8,220 nucleotides of DNA from a virus (Duplodnaviria; Heunggongvirae; Uroviricota; Caudoviricetes). The first letter of the stretch is position 1, and each line of letters begins with the position of its first letter. Positions 1-8,220 of the stretch are shown here, piece after piece. The position numbers were made by a program, and so were the translations under genes. The stretch lies in IMG/VR virus record IMGVR_UViG_2778261515_000002, positions 1-8,220 of that record. The stretch is one strand, 5' to 3'. A model generated the notes under the pieces. It searched no databases. It had not been told where the DNA came from and worked only from the letters and a program-made list of their open reading frames with translations.

Positions 1-1
1 A

Positions 2-484
2 TCAGTCTCTCGCTTTTAAAAGCTCCGCCAGCGGATCAACATCATCCGGTCCGGCGGTATTTACTTTCGCCCGGCTTGCCGGTGACATACCAAATTCTGC
101 AAGCATCGCCCGGATCCGCTTCCAGGCATCCGCTTTCATCGCAGCAGCCGGGTGTGCCTTAATCAGCACATCACCGTTCTGCGTTTCCGTGCGGTAGGTA
201 TACCCCTCAACATCGAGTGTTTCGCAGTGATGCCGGTATTCGGTGTAGGCTTCCACCAGTAACTCGAGTGCACGCGCATCAAGCTGAGAAATGATCCCTT
301 CCGCATTCAGTTCTTCCGCCATTCGCCTGAACCAGTACTTCCCCTGCGACCCTAAATGTTGCGGAATTTTAGGGAGACATTTTTCATCCTTTTTAGCGGT
401 TTTTTTTGGGTCTTTAACGGGGCGCTTTGAGGGGTTGCCTCGTATCAAATGCAGGCGTGGCGGGGTTTTCAGGGGTCCTGACAT
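2..484 (-). CDS. Phage terminase small subunit (P27/HK97-type TerS)
   Basis: 160-aa ORF with ATG at 484-482 and TGA at 4-2. Basic N-terminus (KRPVKDPKKTAKK) and a KAHPAAAMK motif resemble P27-family small terminases. Sits directly downstream of an HNH endonuclease gene, as in HK97-like packaging modules. Family assigned from motifs and context, not from a search. Confidence 0.75.
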   Translation of the reverse strand: MSGPLKTPPRLHLIRGNPSKRPVKDPKKTAKKDEKCLPKIPQHLGSQGKYWFRRMAEELNAEGIISQLDARALELLVEAYTEYRHHCETLDVEGYTYRTETQNGDVLIKAHPAAAMKADAWKRIRAMLAEFGMSPASRAKVNTAGPDDVDPLAELLKARD

Positions 485-631
485 AATCGGTTTTACCTAT
501 CAATCATTTAATCACATTCCAAAAAAAAGTTTTCGAACCTGCGGCGATGCGAGGAAAGGTCAGGCGGCGGTACTGAGCAGCCTGGGTTGCAGAAATTTGA
601 CCCGCCCCTCCCCTGCAGGTGAGAACAATTA

Positions 632-982
632 TCAGTTGATACGTTCGCGCGCAGTTTTTGCTTTATGGCAGGGCCAGCACAGACTCTGCAGGTTACTGTC
701 TGCATTCGTGCCACCATGAGCTTTCGGAATGATGTGGTCCACAGTTCTGGCTTCAACGGCTCTCCCATCGCGCAGGCAGTTCTGACACAGATGATTATCA
801 CGCTTCAGTATGCGCGCACGTATGGCATCCCATTTCGAGCCATAGCCACGCTGGTGGCGGCTCAGTCCGCGTTGGTGCTGCACCCAGCCTTCACCCCGAT
901 GTTTATCGCAGTAGCCAGAGCTGTCTGTTGTTGTGCCTGCGCAGCCTCGCTTACGACATGCGCGGGGGATTTGTGGTGGCAT
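632..982 (-). CDS. HNH endonuclease (packaging-associated)
   Basis: 116 aa from ATG at 982-980, with AGGAG about 9 nt upstream (the track ORF starts at an upstream GTG at 1018). Contains CxxC pairs and the HNH core DHIIPKAHGG...N...CWPCHKAK. Stop TGA at 634-632. Confidence 0.8.
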   Translation of the reverse strand: MPPQIPRACRKRGCAGTTTDSSGYCDKHRGEGWVQHQRGLSRHQRGYGSKWDAIRARILKRDNHLCQNCLRDGRAVEARTVDHIIPKAHGGTNADSNLQSLCWPCHKAKTARERIN

Positions 983-1024
983 AGAATTTCGCTCCTCTAA
1001 AAAATATTCTGCTCTCACCGTCGG

Positions 1025-1207
1025 TCAGTTCTGCATACACTGTCGGACACTATCAACAATTTCGCAGACCTGAGAAGCTGTATCGAAAAGCTGGCGCGCC
1101 TTATCCAGGCTGACGCATCCCACCAATAAAAAAGGCACCAGTATCGCTACCAGTGCCCATTTCGCCGCCGTTCGCGGCATTCTATGTGTCCAGTGTTTTC
1201 TGCTCAT
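1025..1207 (-). CDS. Small lipoprotein, possible o-spanin-like lysis accessory protein
   Basis: 60 aa from ATG at 1207-1205 (AGGTG upstream; alternative ATG at 1180). N-terminal signal peptide with lipobox LLVG-C; short Cys-containing mature part. Lies immediately after the endolysin, where Rz1-type lipoproteins sit. No i-spanin partner seen. Confidence 0.45.
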   Translation of the reverse strand: MSRKHWTHRMPRTAAKWALVAILVPFLLVGCVSLDKARQLFDTASQVCEIVDSVRQCMQN

Positions 1208-1221
1208 AACACACCTGGTTA

Positions 1222-1602
1222 TCAGCGTTTCAACTGAAAGTGAGGCCCGTCTTTCAGTGTTTTCCAGTCCCCGCCCCATTCGATGGCAGTTCCCAGCTCT
1301 GCGGCAGCCTGCTTAAATGCCTGTGCGATTTTCTCGTACAGAGGCCAGTCCCATGACACCTGGCTGCCAACATAAGCCACAACATCCACCGCATCACCTG
1401 TAAGGTGGCGGCTGTTCATGGTCTGGCTTTTCCCTGCCGCTACCAGCTGTTTCTGGCGATACTTACTGCGCAGACCTTCCGTGATACCAAAATCAACCTC
1501 CGTCAGCTCCAGCGCACGGCGAACGACAGCAACCAGCTGTGGTTTGACGCCCTCCAGATTTTTTTCACTGCGACGGCTGAATCTGAATTTACCCGGCATC
1601 AT
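1222..1602 (-). CDS. Endolysin, peptidase M15 family (L-alanyl-D-glutamate peptidase type)
   Basis: Track ORF starts at GTG 1608; in-frame ATGs at 1602 and 1599 follow AGGTGA, and 1599 has the better spacing. Zn-peptidase motifs SRHLTGDAVD and DGPHFQ are typical of M15 endolysins. Stop TGA at 1224-1222. Confidence 0.8.
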   Translation of the reverse strand: MMPGKFRFSRRSEKNLEGVKPQLVAVVRRALELTEVDFGITEGLRSKYRQKQLVAAGKSQTMNSRHLTGDAVDVVAYVGSQVSWDWPLYEKIAQAFKQAAAELGTAIEWGGDWKTLKDGPHFQLKR

Positions 1603-1604
1603 AT

Positions 1605-1880
1605 TCACCTCAACAATGGAAAGATTTTTGTGACGTTCCCGCGTGCGCGTATCACCAGCACGCAGAACAGCAGGTTAAAAAACACTTCCAGCCAGCCCGT
1701 TGCTAACGGGCGACCACACAGATAGCTGAGGGGGGCAAAGGCATAAAGCAGCATCAGCAGCCAGGCCAGCCATGACATCAGCGGTTTGTGTCTGGAGTCA
1801 CGACGACGATAAAAAAAGAGCGTCAGCACGATAACCGTGCATAACGCCACATTCAGCAATCCGGGAAGGTTACTTAACAT
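1605..1880 (-). CDS. Small membrane protein (2-3 TMDs), holin-like or antiholin/lysis-timing candidate
   Basis: 91 aa from ATG at 1880-1878 with a strong GGAGGAGG SD 5 nt upstream. Hydrophobic segments LLNVALCTVIVLTLFFY, LMSWLAWLLMLLYAFAPLSYL and WLEVFFNLLFCVLVI, with a basic C-terminus. Its stop (1607-1605) abuts the endolysin start. Overlaps the upstream holin by 11 nt. Confidence 0.5.
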   Translation of the reverse strand: MLSNLPGLLNVALCTVIVLTLFFYRRRDSRHKPLMSWLAWLLMLLYAFAPLSYLCGRPLATGWLEVFFNLLFCVLVIRARGNVTKIFPLLR

Positions 1881-2262
1881 TGCCGCCTCCTCCACCCCGC
1901 AGGCGGGAGAACACACCGGACACCAGTGATGCAATATCCTGCTGGTGGATGAACGACAGAATCTTCACCGACACCACCGATACCAGCACCGCACACAGCG
2001 CATCTGCCGATGTACCGTCATACCCTGTTTTTGATGCAATCCAGGCTGACAGCACGCGCGCCCCCAGCACGCCGATAATGAACGACACAAGAAAATGCGC
2101 CACCACACGCCAGGCTGAAAGCGCCTGCGGCATCGTTGCCACAAATAACGCCCCGGCGAACGCACCAAACACAATCCCGAAATCCGTTCCGGTAAACAGC
2201 CCGAATACCGTCGCCCCGCCGAGCGCCGCAGCCGTGCCGGAACCGGACAAGGGTTCAGACAT
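1870..2262 (-). CDS. Phage holin, class I-like (three predicted TMDs)
   Basis: 130 aa from ATG at 2262-2260 with AGGAG about 9 nt upstream (track ORF extends to an upstream alternative start). Three hydrophobic helices and a charged C-terminal tail (SRLRGGGGGNVK). First gene of the lysis cassette. Confidence 0.55.
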   Translation of the reverse strand: MSEPLSGSGTAAALGGATVFGLFTGTDFGIVFGAFAGALFVATMPQALSAWRVVAHFLVSFIIGVLGARVLSAWIASKTGYDGTSADALCAVLVSVVSVKILSFIHQQDIASLVSGVFSRLRGGGGGNVK

Positions 2263-2276
2263 ACTTTTTTCTCCTG

Positions 2277-2303
2277 TAAATAAAAAAGGGCCACCAGCGG
2301 CCC
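2277..2303 (-). terminator. Intrinsic terminator immediately upstream of the holin gene
   Basis: On the minus strand the hairpin GGGCC-GCTGGT-GGCCC (2288-2303) is followed by TTTTTTATTT, ending about 15 nt before the holin SD. Confidence 0.5.
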
Positions 2304-2430
2304 GTAAAAAAACACCCGTCAAAGGCACCCGCAGATGCCTTTTGTGTGGCGTTACCTGATGTGATGTGCGCTGGAGGTAGCGCGGAGAAAATGAAATAAG
2401 ACTTACCGGAAATTAAGGTCAATCTGAGGA

Positions 2431-2459
2431 TTTAAACCATTTTTAAAGCTTAGTAATAT
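2431..2459 (+). promoter_or_regulatory. Candidate sigma70 promoter for a plus-strand small transcript
   Basis: TTTAAA (2431-2436), 17-nt spacer, TAATAT (2454-2459). Consensus match judged by eye only. Confidence 0.3.
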
Positions 2460-2465
2460 CAACTC

Positions 2466-2614
2466 GTCTCCGGAAGGAGACCGATACTTATTCTTCTTCA
2501 CGGACTTTGTCCCGCGGCGTTAATCCGACAGCCGCGCTTTTTTTGCGCCATATTCATCGCTGACTTACATGGCATTGCCACACGGACATTATCAGTGTCC
2601 GTGTTTTCTTTTTT
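2466..2614 (+). ncRNA. Candidate small RNA, about 150 nt
   Basis: Bounded by the candidate promoter and a strong plus-strand terminator. Begins with a GGAA tetraloop hairpin GTCTCC-GGAA-GGAGAC (2466-2481). No plus-strand ORF with an SD in between; the interval holds an internal hairpin plus T7 (about 2509-2543). Confidence 0.3.
2581..2614 (+). terminator. Intrinsic terminator (plus strand)
   Basis: Perfect 8-bp stem CACGGACA / TGTCCGTG with 7-nt loop (2581-2603), followed by TTTTCTTTTTT (2604-2614). Confidence 0.6.
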
Positions 2615-2626
2615 CGAATTAAGAAT

Positions 2627-2651
2627 AAAAAAAACCGCCAGATACGGCGGT
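2627..2651 (-). terminator. Intrinsic terminator (minus strand), convergent with the plus-strand terminator
   Basis: On the minus strand the hairpin ACCGCC-GTATCT-GGCGGT (2634-2651) is followed by eight U (plus-strand A-run 2627-2634). Likely ends the tRNA/methylase transcript. Confidence 0.6.
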
Positions 2652-3013
2652 TGGTCAATGCAAGGAATGAATTTTTTAATTGTAATAAAATCGAGGCGTC
2701 GGGTGCCTCCCGAAGTATTCCGTCCTGTATGAATACTGTGGTTTCCCGCTAAACCGACTCTTTTAACCACCCTCGCCCTGAGGAGCGCCCCGATAGTGTT
2801 ATTTACAACACCAGAATGATGCATCACCGACCCTGCCAGGAAATACAAAATCTCCACCAGCAATGCACCATTCTGCTGCCGTAAAAAAATCAGCACTGAG
2901 GCTAACCTGGCCTCAAATCATAGCCAGAGAACAGAATGCTTTTTCAAAACAACCTGCTCCCACGTAATAAAAATACGCCAGTGCTGCAATACAATAAGGC
3001 TTATTTCAAATGC

Positions 3014-3088
<75 letters not shown>

Positions 3089-3094
3089 ATATAG

Positions 3095-3167
3095 TGCCGA
3101 TTACCGGAATCGAACTGGCGACCCGGTGATTACAAGTCAGTTGCTTTGTCTGCTAAGTTAAATCGGC
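3095..3167 (-). tRNA. tRNA-like gene, tRNA-Thr(UGU)-like, non-canonical (possible pseudogene)
   Basis: Reverse complement is GCCGATTTAACTTAGCAGACAAAGCAACTGACTTGTAATCACCGGGTCGCCAGTTCGATTCCGGTAATCGGCA. Perfect 7-bp acceptor stem (GCCGATT/AATCGGC), T-loop TTCGATT, and anticodon loop CTTGTAA (anticodon TGT). But the D and anticodon stems have mismatches, there is an A-C mismatch in the T stem, and the 3' tail is CTA rather than CCA. Lies 6 nt from the tRNA-Gly. Confidence 0.4.
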
Positions 3168-3348
3168 AACGGTTCCTCGGAAAAAATAAAACGACCGATA
3201 TATGCATTATTTCCCTGTCATCTCCTCGGAACCGACTATCGATATTAATGAGGGCAAACACTATTTCAATAAACATAGTGTCAATATTAGTAAATATATG
3301 TATAAATTTCTATCACTCGTGATTGATTACAAATAATCACACACATAT

Positions 3349-4395
3349 TTAACTATTTTCTTTTATTTCGCTTACAGTCTGGTTAAATCTCTCTTCTTCC
3401 AGCTCCACACCTATTGCATGCCGTCCCAGCGATAATGCTGCTTTTATTGTTGATCTCGACCCCATAAAAAAATCAGCAACCAAATCTCCCGGATGGCTGC
3501 TGGCGGTAATTATCTGACGCAACATATCCGCCGGTTTCTCACAGGGATGTTTGCCGGGGTAATACTGCACAGGCTTGTGCGTCCAGACATCCGTATACGG
3601 AACGGCAGCCGATACGGAAAAATAACGCCGCAGAGATTTGTACTCATCCAGCAGGCTGGCATATTGCCGGTTCAGTTCACTGTATGTGCTGACCAGCTGG
3701 TGGTGTGGCTTTTCCAGTTCACCGCGCTGATGTTTTTCTGCTGCAACACGCGCAAACAACGCCTGTAATTTCAGATAATCGCCTTCGTTCGGCAACTGCC
3801 ACTGACTGGTACCAAACCAGTGCGAAGCCATGTTTTTCTTTCCGGTGGCTTCCGCTATCTGTTTTGCCGTTATCCCCAGTGATTCACGCGCATCACGAAA
3901 GTAAGAAATCAGCGGGGCCATGACGTGCTGTTTTAGTTCACGCCCCTTTGCCGCATAGCCGTCATTTTTGGGCAGGTATGGCCCCTGATAATGTTCTGCA
4001 AACAGAATGCGTTCTGTTGCCGGGAAATACGCCCGCAGGCTTTCCTTGTTGCATCCGTTCCAGCGCCCGGACGGCTTCGCCCAGATAATGTGGTTCAGCA
4101 CATTAAAGCGTTCACGCATCATGATTTCGATATCAGATGCCAGGCGATGACCACAGAACAGGTAGAGACTTCCGGCAGGCTTCAGTACCCGCCAGAACTG
4201 CGCCAGACATCGGTCCAGCCATTTCAGGTAATCATCGTCGCCCTTCCACTGGTTATCCCAGCCCTCGGGCTTCACTTTAAAGTATGGCGGGTCTGTGACT
4301 ATCAGATCGACAGAATTTTCCGGTAAGGTCTGGATAAATTCCAGGCAATCAGCGTTGATTAACTCACAACTGGATATTTTTACAGTATTAGTCAT
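3349..4395 (-). CDS. DNA methyltransferase, beta-class (N6-adenine/N4-cytosine family, DPPY motif), no restriction partner in window
   Basis: 348 aa from ATG at 4395-4393. Motif IV (LIVTDPPYF) lies near the N-terminus and the SAM-binding motif I-like segment (DFFMGSRSTIKAA) near the C-terminus; this circular permutation defines beta-class amino-methyltransferases. DPPY rather than SPPY favours N6-adenine. No restriction endonuclease gene is adjacent. Confidence 0.85.
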   Translation of the reverse strand: MTNTVKISSCELINADCLEFIQTLPENSVDLIVTDPPYFKVKPEGWDNQWKGDDDYLKWLDRCLAQFWRVLKPAGSLYLFCGHRLASDIEIMMRERFNVLNHIIWAKPSGRWNGCNKESLRAYFPATERILFAEHYQGPYLPKNDGYAAKGRELKQHVMAPLISYFRDARESLGITAKQIAEATGKKNMASHWFGTSQWQLPNEGDYLKLQALFARVAAEKHQRGELEKPHHQLVSTYSELNRQYASLLDEYKSLRRYFSVSAAVPYTDVWTHKPVQYYPGKHPCEKPADMLRQIITASSHPGDLVADFFMGSRSTIKAALSLGRHAIGVELEEERFNQTVSEIKENS

Positions 4396-4535
4396 AGATC
4401 AATAAGCACTTCTCTGATAGGCTCATACCGCTTTTGCGCAAAGCAGATGGGCCTGAGGTTTGCTTGTGACCCCAACGCATGAGCAGATGGCTGGCAGGTG
4501 CCGCTAACACCCACCAGCCGCCCATTACCACAAAT

Positions 4536-4559
4536 TAAAAAGCCTTCACTGCGGAAGGC
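4536..4559 (-). terminator. Intrinsic terminator after the small HTH gene
   Basis: On the minus strand the hairpin GCCTTC-CGCAGT-GAAGGC (4542-4559) overlaps the stop codon and is followed by TTTTTAATTT. Confidence 0.5.
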
Positions 4560-4743
4560 GTCTGTAACAACCGAACTGATAATCAGCCAGACCTGCCATA
4601 ACAAGCTGGGTCAGTATTAACTGGCAACGTTCGCGTGAAAGGTACGTATTCTGCGCAATTTCCCCGACGGTCGCCGGCTCGGTGACGCTTAATTCATTAA
4701 ACACCACTCTGGCGGTTTCGGTCATATCCTGCTGTTTTAGCAT
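4546..4743 (-). CDS. Small winged-helix DNA-binding protein, FaeA/PapI-like (putative regulator)
   Basis: 65 aa from ATG at 4743-4741 with AAGGGA 7 nt upstream (track ORF starts at an upstream TTG). The segment PATVGEIAQNTYLSRERCQLILTQLVMAGL has the helix-turn-helix pattern of FaeA/PapI-type regulators. Has its own terminator. Family assignment is by pattern recall only. Confidence 0.45.
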   Translation of the reverse strand: MLKQQDMTETARVVFNELSVTEPATVGEIAQNTYLSRERCQLILTQLVMAGLADYQFGCYRRLPQ

Positions 4744-5191
4744 GTCTTTTTCCCTTATTCCGGTTAACGTGACATACCAATAACTCTTGTCGAAAAAGCC
4801 AGCAAGCTGAAAGACCGGTATTCGCAACCACCAGCGCGTTTAACGTACTGCGCCGCTTTTCGGGCATAAAAAACCCCGTTTGGCGGCTGGTTTAAGCTGT
4901 GTGGCAAAGTGACCACTCTTAACATCATATTTAAATTTTTACGTACGTAAACCAGCACGAATTTACATTATAAAATACAAAAACAATAACTTTTCATTAC
5001 ATTTCAGAAGCGCATCTCTCATTACAAAAACATCGTCAATAATTACCAGTACGCATAAACGAGATCTTGATCACACTTTGAACCATTAAATAAACTCCAT
5101 ATCTTGAAATAGCCATACCGATTAGATGTATATTTAGGCCGCAGTGACAATATTTTTTAATAATAGTTCCGAAAAGGACTAAGGATTCACG

Positions 5192-6289
5192 ATGAAAAAA
5201 TTAACAGTGGCAATCTCTGCTGTAGCTGCGTCAGTATTAATGGCGATGTCTGCTCAAGCAGCAGAGATTTATAACAAAGACAGCAACAAACTGGATCTGT
5301 ACGGAAAAGTTAATGCCAAGCACTACTTCTCCTCTAACGATAAACACGATGGTGACAAAACTTATGCTCGTCTGGGCTTCAAAGGCGAAACCCAAATCAA
5401 TGATCAACTGACTGGTTTCGGTCAGTGGGAATATGAATTCAAAGGCAACCGTGCTGAATCTCAAGGTTCTTCCGGGGATAAAACTCGCCTTGCATTCGCT
5501 GGCCTGAAATTCGGTGACTACGGCTCCATCGATTATGGCCGTAACTACGGTGTAGCATACGACATCGGTGCGTGGACTGACGTTTTGCCAGAATTCGGTG
5601 GTGATACCTGGACTCAAACCGACGTATTCATGACTCAGCGTGCAACTGGTGTTGCAACTTACCGTAATAACGACTTCTTCGGTCTGGTTGATGGTCTGAA
5701 CTTTGCTGCTCAGTACCAAGGCAAAAACGATCGTAGCAAGCTCGATAACTATACCGAAGGTAACGGTGATGGCTTCGGTTTCTCTGCTACCTATGAATAC
5801 GAAGGATTCGGTATTGGTGCAACTTATGCGAAATCTGACCGTACCGACACTCAAGTTAATCTAGGGAAAGTTCTTCCTGGAGTATTTGCTTCCGGTAAAA
5901 ATGCAGAAGTTTGGGCCGCTGGTCTGAAATATGACGCTAACAACATTTACTTGGCCACTACCTATTCTGAAACCCAGAATATGACGGTATTTGCTGATCG
6001 CTTCGTCGCTAATAAAGCTCAGAACGTTGAGGCTGTTGCACAATATCAGTTCGATTTTGGGCTGCGTCCGTCCGTGGCTTACCTGCAATCTAAAGGTAAA
6101 GATCTCGGAGTATGGGGCGATCAAGACTTAGTTAAATATGTTGATGTAGGCGCAACCTATTACTTCAACAAAAATATGTCTACTTTCGTTGATTACAAAA
6201 TCAACCTGCTTGACAAAAATGATTTCACCAGAGGTCTTGGTATAAACACCGACGATATTGTTGCTGTCGGTATGGTTTACCAGTTCTAA
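5192..6289 (+). CDS. nmpC: Outer-membrane porin, OmpC/OmpF/PhoE family (prophage NmpC/Lc type)
   Basis: 365 aa from ATG 5192 with AAGGA SD 7 nt upstream; TAA at 6287-6289. Signal peptide [23 protein letters not shown] followed by [16 protein letters not shown], and a C-terminal ...VAVGMVYQF beta-barrel signature. Opposite strand to all phage genes, immediately downstream of Q as in DLP12 and PA-2. Codon usage looks host-optimised. Confidence 0.9.
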
Positions 6290-6310
6290 ATCTTTTTATT
6301 AAAAAAGATA

Positions 6311-6340
6311 TGTTGTGGGAGATATTTATCTCCCACAACA
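6311..6340 (-). terminator. 30-bp perfect palindrome, candidate tR'-type terminator downstream of Q
   Basis: TGTTGTGGGAGATA-TT-TATCTCCCACAACA is a perfect inverted repeat. On the minus strand it is followed by TATCTTTTTTAAT; on the plus strand it is not followed by a U-tract. Lies about 140 nt downstream of the Q stop codon. Confidence 0.45.
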
Positions 6341-6427
6341 TGTGGGTGACGCCCTCACGTCACTGCATTAAGAAAGACATTTTGTCTTTTCTTTTTAACC
6401 TTCTGTTATTTATTACTCTAAACTCTT

Positions 6428-6456
6428 GGGGGCGTTTTTGCGTCCCCTTTTTTATT
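6428..6456 (+). terminator. Intrinsic terminator of the porin gene (plus strand)
   Basis: Stem GGGGGCG / CGTCCCC with loop TTTTTG, followed by TTTTTTATT. Confidence 0.55.
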
Positions 6457-6478
6457 CAATTTTACCAGCAAACGTTAA

Positions 6479-6862
6479 TCAATAACATCTAACAACTTCA
6501 AGATCCATCTCGAGACGAACATCCAGTGCCATCAACATTCCGTCGACTATTCCTTCAGCCTTCTGAAGTTTTTTTCCTATATATCCATCAGAACAATGAT
6601 GCTTACGGGCCAGTGCCATAAACGTCATACCAGCCACATAATAATCTACCAGCAAATCATGCAAATCACTGTTGTTCTTTTTCAAACGAGCCATACACCC
6701 ACAAATAACCATTGCGTCATCATCACTACATTGCGGTCGCGATTTAACCTTTGAAGGAATAAGTCCCTTGAATCCGGCTGCAATCGATGACCAGGTGACA
6801 TCCTCATGATTATTTGCCACCCATGCCCCCCAACGCTCAAGAACCATCTGAATATCACGCAT
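6479..6862 (-). CDS. Late-gene antiterminator Q (small Q family, quuD/phage-82-like)
   Basis: 127 aa from ATG at 6862-6860 with AGGAGGTG SD upstream. Begins [14 protein letters not shown] and contains the Cys-rich segment [18 protein letters not shown]. Located before the porin as in DLP12 (quuD-nmpC). Confidence 0.8.
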
Positions 6863-7119
6863 CAGCGCAGCACCTCCTGCACCAGTTTTTCAAACTTTCC
6901 AACTCTGGTTTCCAGCTCTGCCACACAATCCACCAGCTCATCCACCGCTTTTTGTGCGCGGTGTTTCGCCTGCATCAGTTCCCTGAGCGCTGGCACCATA
7001 TCCCGACGAATGGCATCTTTTGTTACACCTGTTTTTTCCAGTTGTTCCGCCTGTCGCAACATTTCCTGTGCCTGTTTACGTAATTGTTCAGGGGTAAAAG
7101 GTGTTGTCTGGTTGTTCAA
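6862..7119 (-). CDS. Hypothetical small coiled-coil protein
   Basis: 85-aa ORF whose first codon is TTG (7119-7117), overlapping the helicase stop (TTGA); its stop overlaps the Q start (TGATG). The first in-frame ATG is at 7062 (66-aa alternative). Strongly helical, charged sequence; no recognised family. Confidence 0.4.
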
Positions 7120-8220
7120 AAGAAACGCTCCATCTTACTGCTGTCAGTTCGTTTGTTGCTGTATCTGCGCGGCTGGGGCTGCTGCATTGGGGTAGAAAGA
7201 ATCTGTGCGCTTTCCTGATCCACAGGCAGAAAATGTCCGTTATAAAAACGCCGGTAAATCGTTCCCAGAGAACCGTTACGTTGTTTCGTGATATTGATTT
7301 CTGCGATGCCCCTGGCCTGCGTATCCGGGTTGTACACTTCATCCCTGTAAAGCATCAGAATGATGTCTGCATCCGCCTCTATTTCTCCGGAATTTTTCAG
7401 GTCTGAGTTCATGGGGCGTTTATTGGGCCTGGACTCCACACCGCGGGAGAGCTGACTCAACGCAACCACCGGTAATCCGCCGGATTTTGCCAGGCCTTTA
7501 AGCCCCTTTGAGATTTCACCCACGGCAAGGTCATGACGCCCCGTGCTCCGGGTTTTTATCAGCCCGAGATAATCAACCACCACCAGCGCCGTTTCCGGAT
7601 GTTTAATCAGGTGGTGTTTCGTTGTTGCGTATATCTCGTCAATGGTCAGGTTCGCCTGGTCCACCATCCAGATATTGCGCCCGGTCATCCGCCCCACTCC
7701 TTGTGAGAAACGTGCCCAGTCTTCGTCTTCAAAGTGAGTGACAGATTTCAGGCGTGATACCGGCATTCCTCCAGCCGCAGATACCATGCGCTCACCAATC
7801 TGGATGTTCGCCATTTCCATTGTGAACAGAAGAACACCATGCCCCTGCTCAGTCACCTTGTCGATGATATCCAGCGCCAGTTCGGTTTTACCCATCGAAG
7901 GACGAGCCGCAATAAATACCAGGTCGCCGGGTTCCATACCGCCTGTTTTTGCGTCCAGTTCATCAATACCGGTCATCAGCGTCCTGGATTTCTCCAGCCC
8001 CTGATTCCGGCATTCAACACGTTCAACCACTTCCGGAAGCACATCATCAATATGTACCGGCTGAATAATACCCTTCCCCGTCGACAATGAGGCCATCATG
8101 TTCTGCGCATCCTTCAGAGCATCTTCAGCTGCTTCACAGGTATGCGCATCACGTAATTTCTGTAATGAACCGCCCCGGAAATCCTGGAGACTAAACTCCC
8201 TGAGAAAGAGGTAAACAGGA
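7116..8220 (-). CDS. DnaB-family replicative DNA helicase, 5'-partial (N-terminus beyond window end)
   Basis: The frame is open from the window edge (8219) to TGA at 7118-7116, about 367 codons in the window. DnaB C-terminal RecA-like domain with Walker A (IAARPSMGKTELA), the ...LMTGIDELDAKTGG... linker and ...ADADIILMLYRDEVY... The track ORF begins at an internal Met (8099). Confidence 0.85.
   Translation of the reverse strand, partial: PVYLFLREFSLQDFRGGSLQKLRDAHTCEAAEDALKDAQNMMASLSTGKGIIQPVHIDDVLPEVVERVECRNQGLEKSRTLMTGIDELDAKTGGMEPGDLVFIAARPSMGKTELALDIIDKVTEQGHGVLLFTMEMANIQIGERMVSAAGGMPVSRLKSVTHFEDEDWARFSQGVGRMTGRNIWMVDQANLTIDEIYATTKHHLIKHPETALVVVDYLGLIKTRSTGRHDLAVGEISKGLKGLAKSGGLPVVALSQLSRGVESRPNKRPMNSDLKNSGEIEADADIILMLYRDEVYNPDTQARGIAEINITKQRNGSLGTIYRRFYNGHFLPVDQESAQILSTPMQQPQPRRYSNKRTDSSKMERFF

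Follow-up and report, generated by a model that had tools for sequence, protein, structure and literature searches.

In phage lambda, the nin region occupies the interval between O and P, the genes for replication, and the late-gene antiterminator gene Q and is wholly dispensable for plaque formation (PMC10695390). The DNA analyzed here, positions 1 to 8,220 of IMG/VR virus record IMGVR_UViG_2778261515_000002 (8,220 nucleotides [nt]; the whole stretch is hereafter called the window), raises the question of what this interval holds in another lambdoid lineage. In the window, a DnaB-type helicase gene is followed by a single open reading frame (ORF) of 85 codons with a TTG start and then immediately by Q. 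Is the small ORF a gene, is the junction unusual, and does the gene product belong with the helicase or with Q? Sequence comparisons indicate that the helicase-85-codon ORF-Q run is genuine but is the ordinary layout of phiP27-like Escherichia coli prophages. We consider it likely that the region forms the distal end of an early-right (replication) operon in a lambdoid prophage of the phiP27-like kind, with one accessory gene at the nin position and Q directly after it.

Organization of the helicase-small ORF-Q junction

All three junction genes are encoded on the minus strand (Table 1, in which coordinates are window positions). The gene identities proposed in a first-pass annotation of the window, a DnaB-type helicase and Q, were supported by the Pfam families DnaB_C and Phage_antitermQ. 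The ATPase domain of the helicase matched DnaB_C positions 2-247 of 255, and Q matched Phage_antitermQ (PF06530) over the entire profile (positions 1-118 of 118; E 5.8e-54) as well as phrog_79 (E 4.9e-52). The helicase frame enters at the high-coordinate end of the window and terminates at a TGA at 7118-7116. The small ORF begins with the TTG at 7119-7117 and runs for 258 nt to a TGA at 6864-6862, whose last base doubles as the A of the Q start codon (ATG, 6862-6860). The overlaps that had been annotated, TTGA between the helicase stop and the ORF start and TGATG between the ORF stop and the Q start, were confirmed from the sequence.

The interval between the helicase gene and Q contains a single 258-nt ORF without a Pfam, PHROG, or NCBIfam match to any nin family, and no lambda-type nin block (NinB/Orf, NinG/Rap, RusA, Roi/NinH, and others) was found there. 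The earlier description of one small ORF at the lambda nin position was correct, and no nin-type gene lies between the helicase gene and Q. The order of genes is that of the phiP27 type, namely a DnaC-like loader, a DnaB-type helicase, an ORF of ~85 amino acids (aa), and a PF06530-type Q.

Table 1. Features of the junction and its flanks in the window
Feature	Position	Strand	Evidence
Helicase (DnaB-type), C-terminal ~350 codons	7116..8165	-	Pfam DnaB_C, E 8.8e-74; phrog_19, E 1.8e-96
85-codon gene (WP_001695599.1), helical-hairpin protein	6862..7119	-	phrog_2565, E 4.9e-32; dN/dS; AlphaFold2 model
Q late-gene antiterminator, QuuD/PF06530 type, 127 aa	6479..6862	-	Pfam Phage_antitermQ; phrog_79
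TTGA, overlap of helicase stop and 85-codon ORF start	7116..7119	-	Read from sequence
TGATG, 85-codon ORF stop and Q start, one shared base	6860..6864	-	Read from sequence
GGAG, Shine-Dalgarno-like motif within helicase 3' end	7128..7131	-	8 nt before TTG
AGGAGG, Shine-Dalgarno-like motif for Q within small ORF 3' end	6873..6878	-	10 nt before Q ATG
Left end of IS3-family element (inverted repeat and leader)	8166..8220	+	rl0044 annotation; alignment to 504838
Candidate terminator, hairpin with 14-bp stem and T-run	6310..6341	-	Terminator scan and sequence

Both junctions carry the sequence features of a coupled gene pair (TTGA with GGAG at -8, and TGATG with AGGAGG at -10), and these are conserved. 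The TTGA, GGAG, and TGATG motifs were invariant across the aligned relatives (five in the GGAG alignment), including those in which the small ORF has diverged by ~25%. A 4-nt overlap was also present at four of the six early-operon junctions in an intact relative, L014. The stop/start overlaps at the junction are genuine but are no more than usual for such an operon.

Coding status and start codon of the small ORF

The small ORF was compared among the window, phiP27, one Stx1a phage, PhiR49_2, and strain AST217. Against the ~25%-diverged relatives, the ratio of nonsynonymous to synonymous substitution rates (dN/dS, Nei-Gojobori method) was 0.18-0.20 at a dS of ~1.3, and the differences at codon positions 1, 2, and 3 numbered 27, 12, and 38, respectively. 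The first-pass annotation had allowed that the ORF might be spurious and unconserved in relatives, but this doubt was not borne out, given the dN/dS of ~0.2 and the presence of homologs in Hafnia and Klebsiella. Two plus-strand antisense ORFs (6806-7195 and 6814-7083) were considered and ruled out, as the substitutions cluster at third positions of the minus-strand frame.

The small ORF frame has a TAA six codons upstream of the TTG, and its next ATG is codon 20. No ATG, GTG, CTG, or ATT/ATC/ATA codon occurs from the upstream TAA to codon 10; therefore, TTG is the only usable start in this part of the frame, as had been annotated. The TTG is imposed by the overlap, because its first T is the third base of the conserved terminal Phe codon of the helicase (TTT TGA). 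As judged from the sequence, an ATG start at the overlap would need a change of this Phe.

Homologs from other hosts begin at the matching position. In a Klebsiella spallanzanii prophage, a homolog of 70% identity has an ATG start at the homologous position, with an ATGA overlap, and in Hafnia phage yong2, a homolog of 55% identity in the protein alignment (60% over the tblastn match) has a GTG start with a GTGA overlap. Nearly all of the 120 homolog clusters among the matches listed were called at 85 aa. Family-wide conservation starts at Pro10, and one of the stretches best conserved across the family, the long forms described below included, is the motif (T/S)PExLRKQA at residues 9-17. In codons 10-19, which precede the first ATG, the proportion of synonymous differences (pS) was 0.87 and that of nonsynonymous differences (pN) was 0.11.

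These data bear on the alternative that the ORF is spurious, or that its product starts at the internal ATG (codon 20, giving 66 aa) with the TTG an annotation artifact. TTG is a rare start codon, GAA/CAG-rich sequence coding for helices readily yields long ORFs, and the antisense frame is open too. Moreover, the phiP27 record annotates its counterpart, L20, as an 80-aa protein from an extra in-frame ATG at codon 6. However, that ATG is missing in the window and in PhiR49_2 and AST217. A spurious frame is also difficult to reconcile with a dN/dS of ~0.2 and differences mostly at its third codon positions, and an internal start with purifying selection on codons 10-19, strong conservation of the residue 9-17 motif, the matching start positions in Klebsiella and Hafnia, and the nearly uniform cluster length. 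We regard this alternative as highly improbable. The patterns of conservation instead argue that the 85-codon ORF is a real gene translated from TTG.

The frame of the small ORF is -1 with respect to that of the helicase, and the junction between them (TTCTTTTGA) is T-rich and invariant, as might be expected if the small ORF were made as a C-terminal extension of the helicase through programmed -1 frameshifting. However, no X XXY YYZ slippery heptamer is present in the helicase frame, and the spacing of the GGAG suits independent initiation at the TTG. In addition, Hafnia phage yong2 and the Klebsiella prophage have the same domain as a free-standing gene that follows non-helicase genes and starts with a GTG or ATG of its own. 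We therefore give frameshifting almost no weight.

Distribution of the compact junction

The same junction is present in phiP27 (NC_003356/AJ298298), described in the literature as an infectious Stx2e phage, as L19 (helicase), L20 (hypothetical protein), and L21 (Q). The nucleotide identity to the window was 96% over window positions 6820-8162, the TTGA and TGATG overlaps are the same, and there are no nin genes. phiP27 differs from the window in its extra ATG at codon 6 and in its intact helicase. Seven Stx1a-converting phages also have this junction, with 92% identity over it. In the 5,426 complete E. coli genomes, the helicase-small ORF pair was found in 347, and in 159 of these, Q follows the pair contiguously or nearly so.

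The remaining pair-bearing genomes are mostly of a ~78%-identical type. In all examples of this type examined (PhiR49_2, AST217, and Stx2a phages), a gene for a DUF968/YdfU HNH-like protein lies between the small ORF and Q. These relatives resemble the window in the helicase-ORF pair with its TTGA overlap and in the Q family. By contrast, a DUF968 gene of 990 nt precedes Q, and Q is not overlapped and has its own ribosome-binding site. The small ORF product of the PhiR49_2/AST217 type shares only 66-69% protein identity with that of the window. Because the small ORFs of the compact and DUF968 types differ at ~25% of bases, with a dS of ~1.3, the two architectures appear to be old lineages. In PhiR49_2, the DUF968 cassette has TGATG at both ends (L003 4045-4105 and 3040-3060), and a 14-codon mini-ORF starts at the first TGATG. 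From this sequence, gain or loss of the cassette could occur exactly at the gene boundary.

The first-pass annotation had treated the compact junction as unusual and reduced unless it proved to be the norm of the lineage. It does prove to be the norm, as phiP27, the seven Stx1a phages, and 159 of the 347 pair-bearing genomes demonstrate. The annotation had also suggested that synteny with related prophages might reveal a deletion of the nin region, and here the shared junction in phiP27 and the Stx1a phages, together with the age of the two types, points the other way. A recent deletion during decay of this defective prophage would be in keeping with its decay elsewhere, namely an insertion in the helicase gene (see below), and with the existence of DUF968-bearing relatives, in which microhomology-mediated deletion of the TGATG-bounded cassette could yield exactly this junction. 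However, the identical junction recurs in phiP27, in the Stx1a-converting phages, and in 159 complete E. coli genomes; the compact and DUF968 types are old by their divergence; and there is no nin-gene remnant at the junction, where the difference amounts to at most one gene (DUF968) and not to a multi-kilobase nin block. A recent deletion is thus quite unlikely. The distribution indicates that the missing nin region does not reflect a recent local deletion, and the window has the ordinary phiP27-like layout.

The DLP12 prophage of E. coli K-12 was a further point of comparison. Its Q gene, quuD, is ~85% identical in DNA to Q of the window, and a convergent porin gene of the OmpC/NmpC type (nmpC in DLP12) lies directly downstream in both. 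However, the match to MG1655 covers the Q part only, and the helicase gene and the 85-codon ORF are not upstream of quuD, where DLP12 instead has nin-type genes such as rusA.

The compact junction is already known, in that it is present in annotated records back to phiP27. In the SfI paper, phiP27 appears in homology comparisons only, and nothing is said of the helicase-small ORF-Q junction. The comparisons show that a lambdoid lineage widespread in E. coli, with Stx1a-, Stx2a-, and Stx2e-converting phages among its members, naturally has a one- or two-gene interval at the nin position, with Q close behind the replication genes and no terminator detected in between. Two points are mildly new: the 85-aa protein shares a domain with winged-helix early proteins of Stx phages, in which the domain is C-terminal, and this copy is disrupted by an insertion sequence (IS).

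Genomic neighbors of the small gene

The genes flanking the small gene vary among its relatives. In E. coli prophages of the window type, it is preceded by the DnaB-type helicase gene and followed by Q (PF06530), with DUF968 first in some. In the Klebsiella spallanzanii prophage, the gene before it encodes an initiator with HTH_36 and Phg_2220_C domains, and the gene after it encodes Dam. In Hafnia phage yong2, it follows PerC and a small hypothetical gene and is itself followed by Dam, RusA, DUF968, and a PF06323-type Q. In a Shigella/E. coli locus with a truncated copy, an IS precedes the small gene, and RusA and a PF06323-type Q come after it. This last copy, found in Shigella flexneri SFBU1023 and E. 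coli ECMA0423 (L012/L013 4001-4138), is a second small-gene copy cut to residues 40-85 beside an IS (rve integrase) and is another IS-mediated break at this junction. Throughout, the small gene is the first gene past the replication module, whatever the type of module or the family of Q.

This variation bears on the possibility of a dedicated partnership, in which the 85-aa protein would belong either to Q, modulating late antitermination, or to the DnaB-type helicase. Such a partnership would fit the window, in which the small gene adjoins and overlaps both neighbors, and it would fit the retention of the helicase-ORF pair in 347 E. coli genomes. However, homologs occur with the other Q family (PF06323) and with Dam, RusA, and DUF968 intervening. 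They are likewise found where the replication module ends in a Phg_2220_C-type initiator and no DnaB helicase is adjacent. Stx phages, in addition, have the same domain in pL-side early proteins, whose genes are far from those for helicase and Q. A dedicated partnership is therefore unlikely. As far as gene order can tell, the small gene is in effect an accessory gene of the nin position with no dedicated helicase or Q partner.

The first-pass annotation had offered two associations for the small protein. The proposed association with Q was not supported by the comparison, as DUF968, Dam, or RusA separates the ORF from Q in relatives, and Q itself may be of the PF06323 type. The proposed association with replication stood as far as position is concerned, the gene being at the distal end of the replication module. 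Beyond position it found no footing, as the product of the module's last gene varies (DnaB helicase, Phg_2220_C-type initiator, or small hypothetical protein).

Family and predicted structure of the 85-aa protein

Residues 2-84 of the 85-aa protein aligned with positions 121-203 of the 204 in the profile of phrog_2565, an uncharacterized family of phage proteins, and a weaker match to phrog_2539 was also obtained. Short forms from Hafnia, Klebsiella-like, and metagenomic sources likewise matched phrog_2565. A phmmer search of 1.84 billion cluster representatives returned 33 clusters at E <= 0.001, in which the sequence was either a free-standing protein of 80-93 aa or the C-terminal domain of a protein of 170-265 aa. 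A 608-aa acidic-repeat protein (P0132) among the matches was regarded as compositional. In a narrower alignment search of species-representative genomes, loci were found in E. coli, Shigella, and Klebsiella only.

The long forms belong to phrog_2539 and are winged-helix proteins of ~200-250 aa from Stx phages, with the domain at the C-terminus. The alignment of short and long forms by hhalign had a probability of 99.1% (E 7e-19). In gp10 of Shigella phage 75/02 Stx (237 aa, phrog_2539), homology to the 85-aa protein extends over the C-terminal ~75 residues, with 35-38% identity, and the gp10-type long forms share with it the motifs PExLRKQAE and D-E-x-(I/V)-D. Unlike the 85-aa protein, the gp10-type forms have an N-terminal winged-helix-like domain, often with a zinc ribbon, and their genes lie to the pL side of the immunity region. 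Some phrog_2539 long forms (P0195 and P0213, from metagenomic contigs) are fused at the N-terminus to an AlpA-type helix-turn-helix domain (PF05930), and some bear the precomputed Pfam label PF27269.

The AlphaFold2 (AF2) model of the 85-aa protein (predicted local distance difference test [pLDDT] score, 85) consists of a helix at residues 10-29, a turn, and a 51-residue helix at residues 34-84. This helical hairpin agrees with the coiled-coil character noted in the first-pass annotation. The best-conserved residues, D60, D64, and A67, are in the long helix, on the C-terminal half that protrudes. Long forms are modeled by AF2 (pLDDT 84) with an N-terminal winged helix, often a CxxC...CxxC zinc ribbon, and a long C-terminal helix. 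In a Foldseek search, the N-terminal domain of the long form matched BlaI, PadR/LmrR, RTP, and Rpc34 with high probability (0.9-0.99) but weak E values (0.05-0.2). In several of these winged-helix families, the C-terminal helix mediates dimerization. Generic matches to the hairpin, such as an insertion in the beta' subunit of mycobacterial RNA polymerase, were not taken as homology.

From these alignments, the 85-aa protein appears to be a free-standing copy of the domain that ends the winged-helix early proteins of Stx phages. Since the same domain forms the C-terminal helical tail of those proteins, the models suggest that protein-protein association, with itself or with a partner through the long helix, would be its most likely activity, rather than catalysis or DNA binding. 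If that tail serves the winged-helix early regulators of Stx and lambdoid phages (phrog_2539) in oligomerization or partner binding, the free-standing hairpin might act as a decoy, forming mixed oligomers with the phrog_2539 regulators or competing for their partner. Mixed oligomers of short and long forms are not especially likely at 35-38% identity, and we regard the decoy reading as very unlikely. If it were true, the small gene would encode a small factor for cross-phage interference or timing placed just before Q. The protein, until now a hypothetical protein in ~6% of complete E. coli genomes, can be described as a conserved helical-hairpin domain.

An insertion sequence in the helicase gene

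The E. coli rl0044 chromosome matches the window with 100% identity, and in it the Prokaryotic Genome Annotation Pipeline (PGAP) annotates a split helicase pseudogene around an IS3 family transposase. In strain 504838, the junction is 100% identical over window positions 6300-8165 and the helicase gene is uninterrupted; the alignment to its prophage breaks exactly at 8165/8166. The inserted element is an IS3-family, IS629/IS1203-like IS of 1,310 bp that starts with TGAACCGCCCC and is flanked by a GTAA target duplication. Its full extent, into which the part in the window continues, is L002 10867-12176, and the window ends on the first base of the transposase ATG. Accordingly, the window contains only the C-terminal ~350 of the 463 helicase codons, and its final 55 bases are the IS end.

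The insertion point follows about codon 114 of the helicase gene, the intact form of which, seen in L014 and phiP27, encodes 463 aa. The IS cuts the N-terminal domain of DnaB off from the ATPase domain, and PGAP calls both pieces pseudogenes. The score against TIGR03600 (phage_DnaB) was 257, under the cut-off of 498.65, because the helicase is truncated. The replication module of this copy is thus not intact, although the module is otherwise a part of the phiP27-type junction. As the IS splits the helicase gene, the prophage is probably defective, and phage replication would be abolished. The insertion was present in only two complete genomes, rl0044 and ETEC1738, both from pigs. The prophage can be annotated as replication-defective, which bears on the mobilization of its cargo (porin and methylase).

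Proposed expression of the region and candidate terminators

A scan limited to intrinsic terminators found no convincing one between the replication genes and Q on the coding strand. Because no convincing intrinsic terminator lies in this interval, the early-right transcript is predicted to run straight into Q, as in phages of lambda with a nin deletion, which plate normally. The transcript from the early-right promoter would cover the initiator, the DnaC-like loader, the helicase, the small gene, and Q, with no intrinsic terminator intervening. Ribosomes ending the helicase would reinitiate at the overlapping TTG, helped by the GGAG 8 nt upstream, and those ending the small gene would reinitiate at the overlapping ATG of Q. 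Q would then be synthesized once the replication genes had been translated.

This arrangement resembles the lambda nin region (ren, ninA-ninI, and the terminators tR2-tR4) in its place at the end of the early-right unit, with the replication genes on one side and Q on the other. It differs in having one gene instead of about ten, in showing no sequence relation to the nin genes, and in that no terminator-like site was detected on the coding strand. In its overlapping stops and starts, the operon also resembles lambda ninR, which is said to have received its classic description, as a chain of such genes, from Kroger and Hobom in 1982.

With the IS in the helicase gene, the small gene and Q would be subject to polarity, and their expression may be lowered in the window copy. 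Blocks placed within the lambda nin region are polar on Q (PMC10695390), and by the same logic, the IS is expected to reduce expression of the small gene and Q.

Several points weigh against this interpretation of the region and its small protein. Use of the TTG and translational coupling are both deduced from sequence and conservation. In the PhiR49_2-type relatives, a gap of 17 nt separates Q from the DUF968 gene before it, and Q has a GGAG of its own; because coupling to Q is not conserved in these DUF968-type relatives, it would not be a required regulatory device. Polarity of the IS on Q is an expectation drawn by analogy. For the protein, searches of Pfam, NCBIfam, and PADLOC gave sub-threshold coiled-coil noise only (GA_3, BLOC1_2, RacA, PDC-M40C, and ZorA), and searches of PDB sequences with the single sequence and with a profile found only de novo designed helical proteins and GCN4 peptides. 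A Foldseek search of the AF2 hairpin against PDB and BFVD returned nothing below E 0.1, and the Foldseek E values for the N-terminal domain of the long form were weak (0.05-0.5).

Downstream of Q, the candidate terminator hairpin (read on the coding strand from 6341 to 6310) is strong; it lies ~140 nt past Q and also behind the convergent porin gene. From its position, it is a candidate for a tR'-like, bidirectional terminator of the late operon at which Q may act. A second G+C-rich hairpin followed by a T-run is present on the plus strand at 6428-6447, between the first hairpin and Q. A promoter scan of 6479-6342 found none that met the scan criteria.

Other features of the window

The porin gene (5192-6289, plus strand) is full length and of the OmpC/NmpC type (Pfam Porin_1, E 5e-155). 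The gene is antisense to the late operon and is located between the late genes and Q, and the porin is likely lysogenic-conversion cargo. At this position downstream of Q, phiP27 has a gene for a GIY-YIG nuclease instead.

In the slot that holds stxA2e and stxB2e in phiP27, between the tRNA genes and the holin genes, the window has a 132-codon ORF with a GTG start (2498-2896, minus strand), which has no Pfam match and is called hypothetical by PGAP; it would be cargo carried at the Shiga-toxin locus. A match to the Rfam tRNA model (45.9 bits, E 1.7e-7) was found at 3095-3167 on the minus strand, directly upstream of tRNA-Gly(tcc) at 3014-3088. It is called by neither ARAGORN nor PGAP and may represent a phage tRNA that is degenerate or unusual. 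The tRNA genes found at this position in phiP27 are those for tRNA-Ile and tRNA-Arg.

The late region (1222-2328, 632-1018, and 2-484, all on the minus strand) is phiP27-like and again has 4-nt overlaps. Its genes encode holins (Phage_holin_8 and Phage_holin_3_7), an endolysin of the M15 peptidase type, a small ORF at the Rz position, an HNH endonuclease, and a small terminase of the P27 family.

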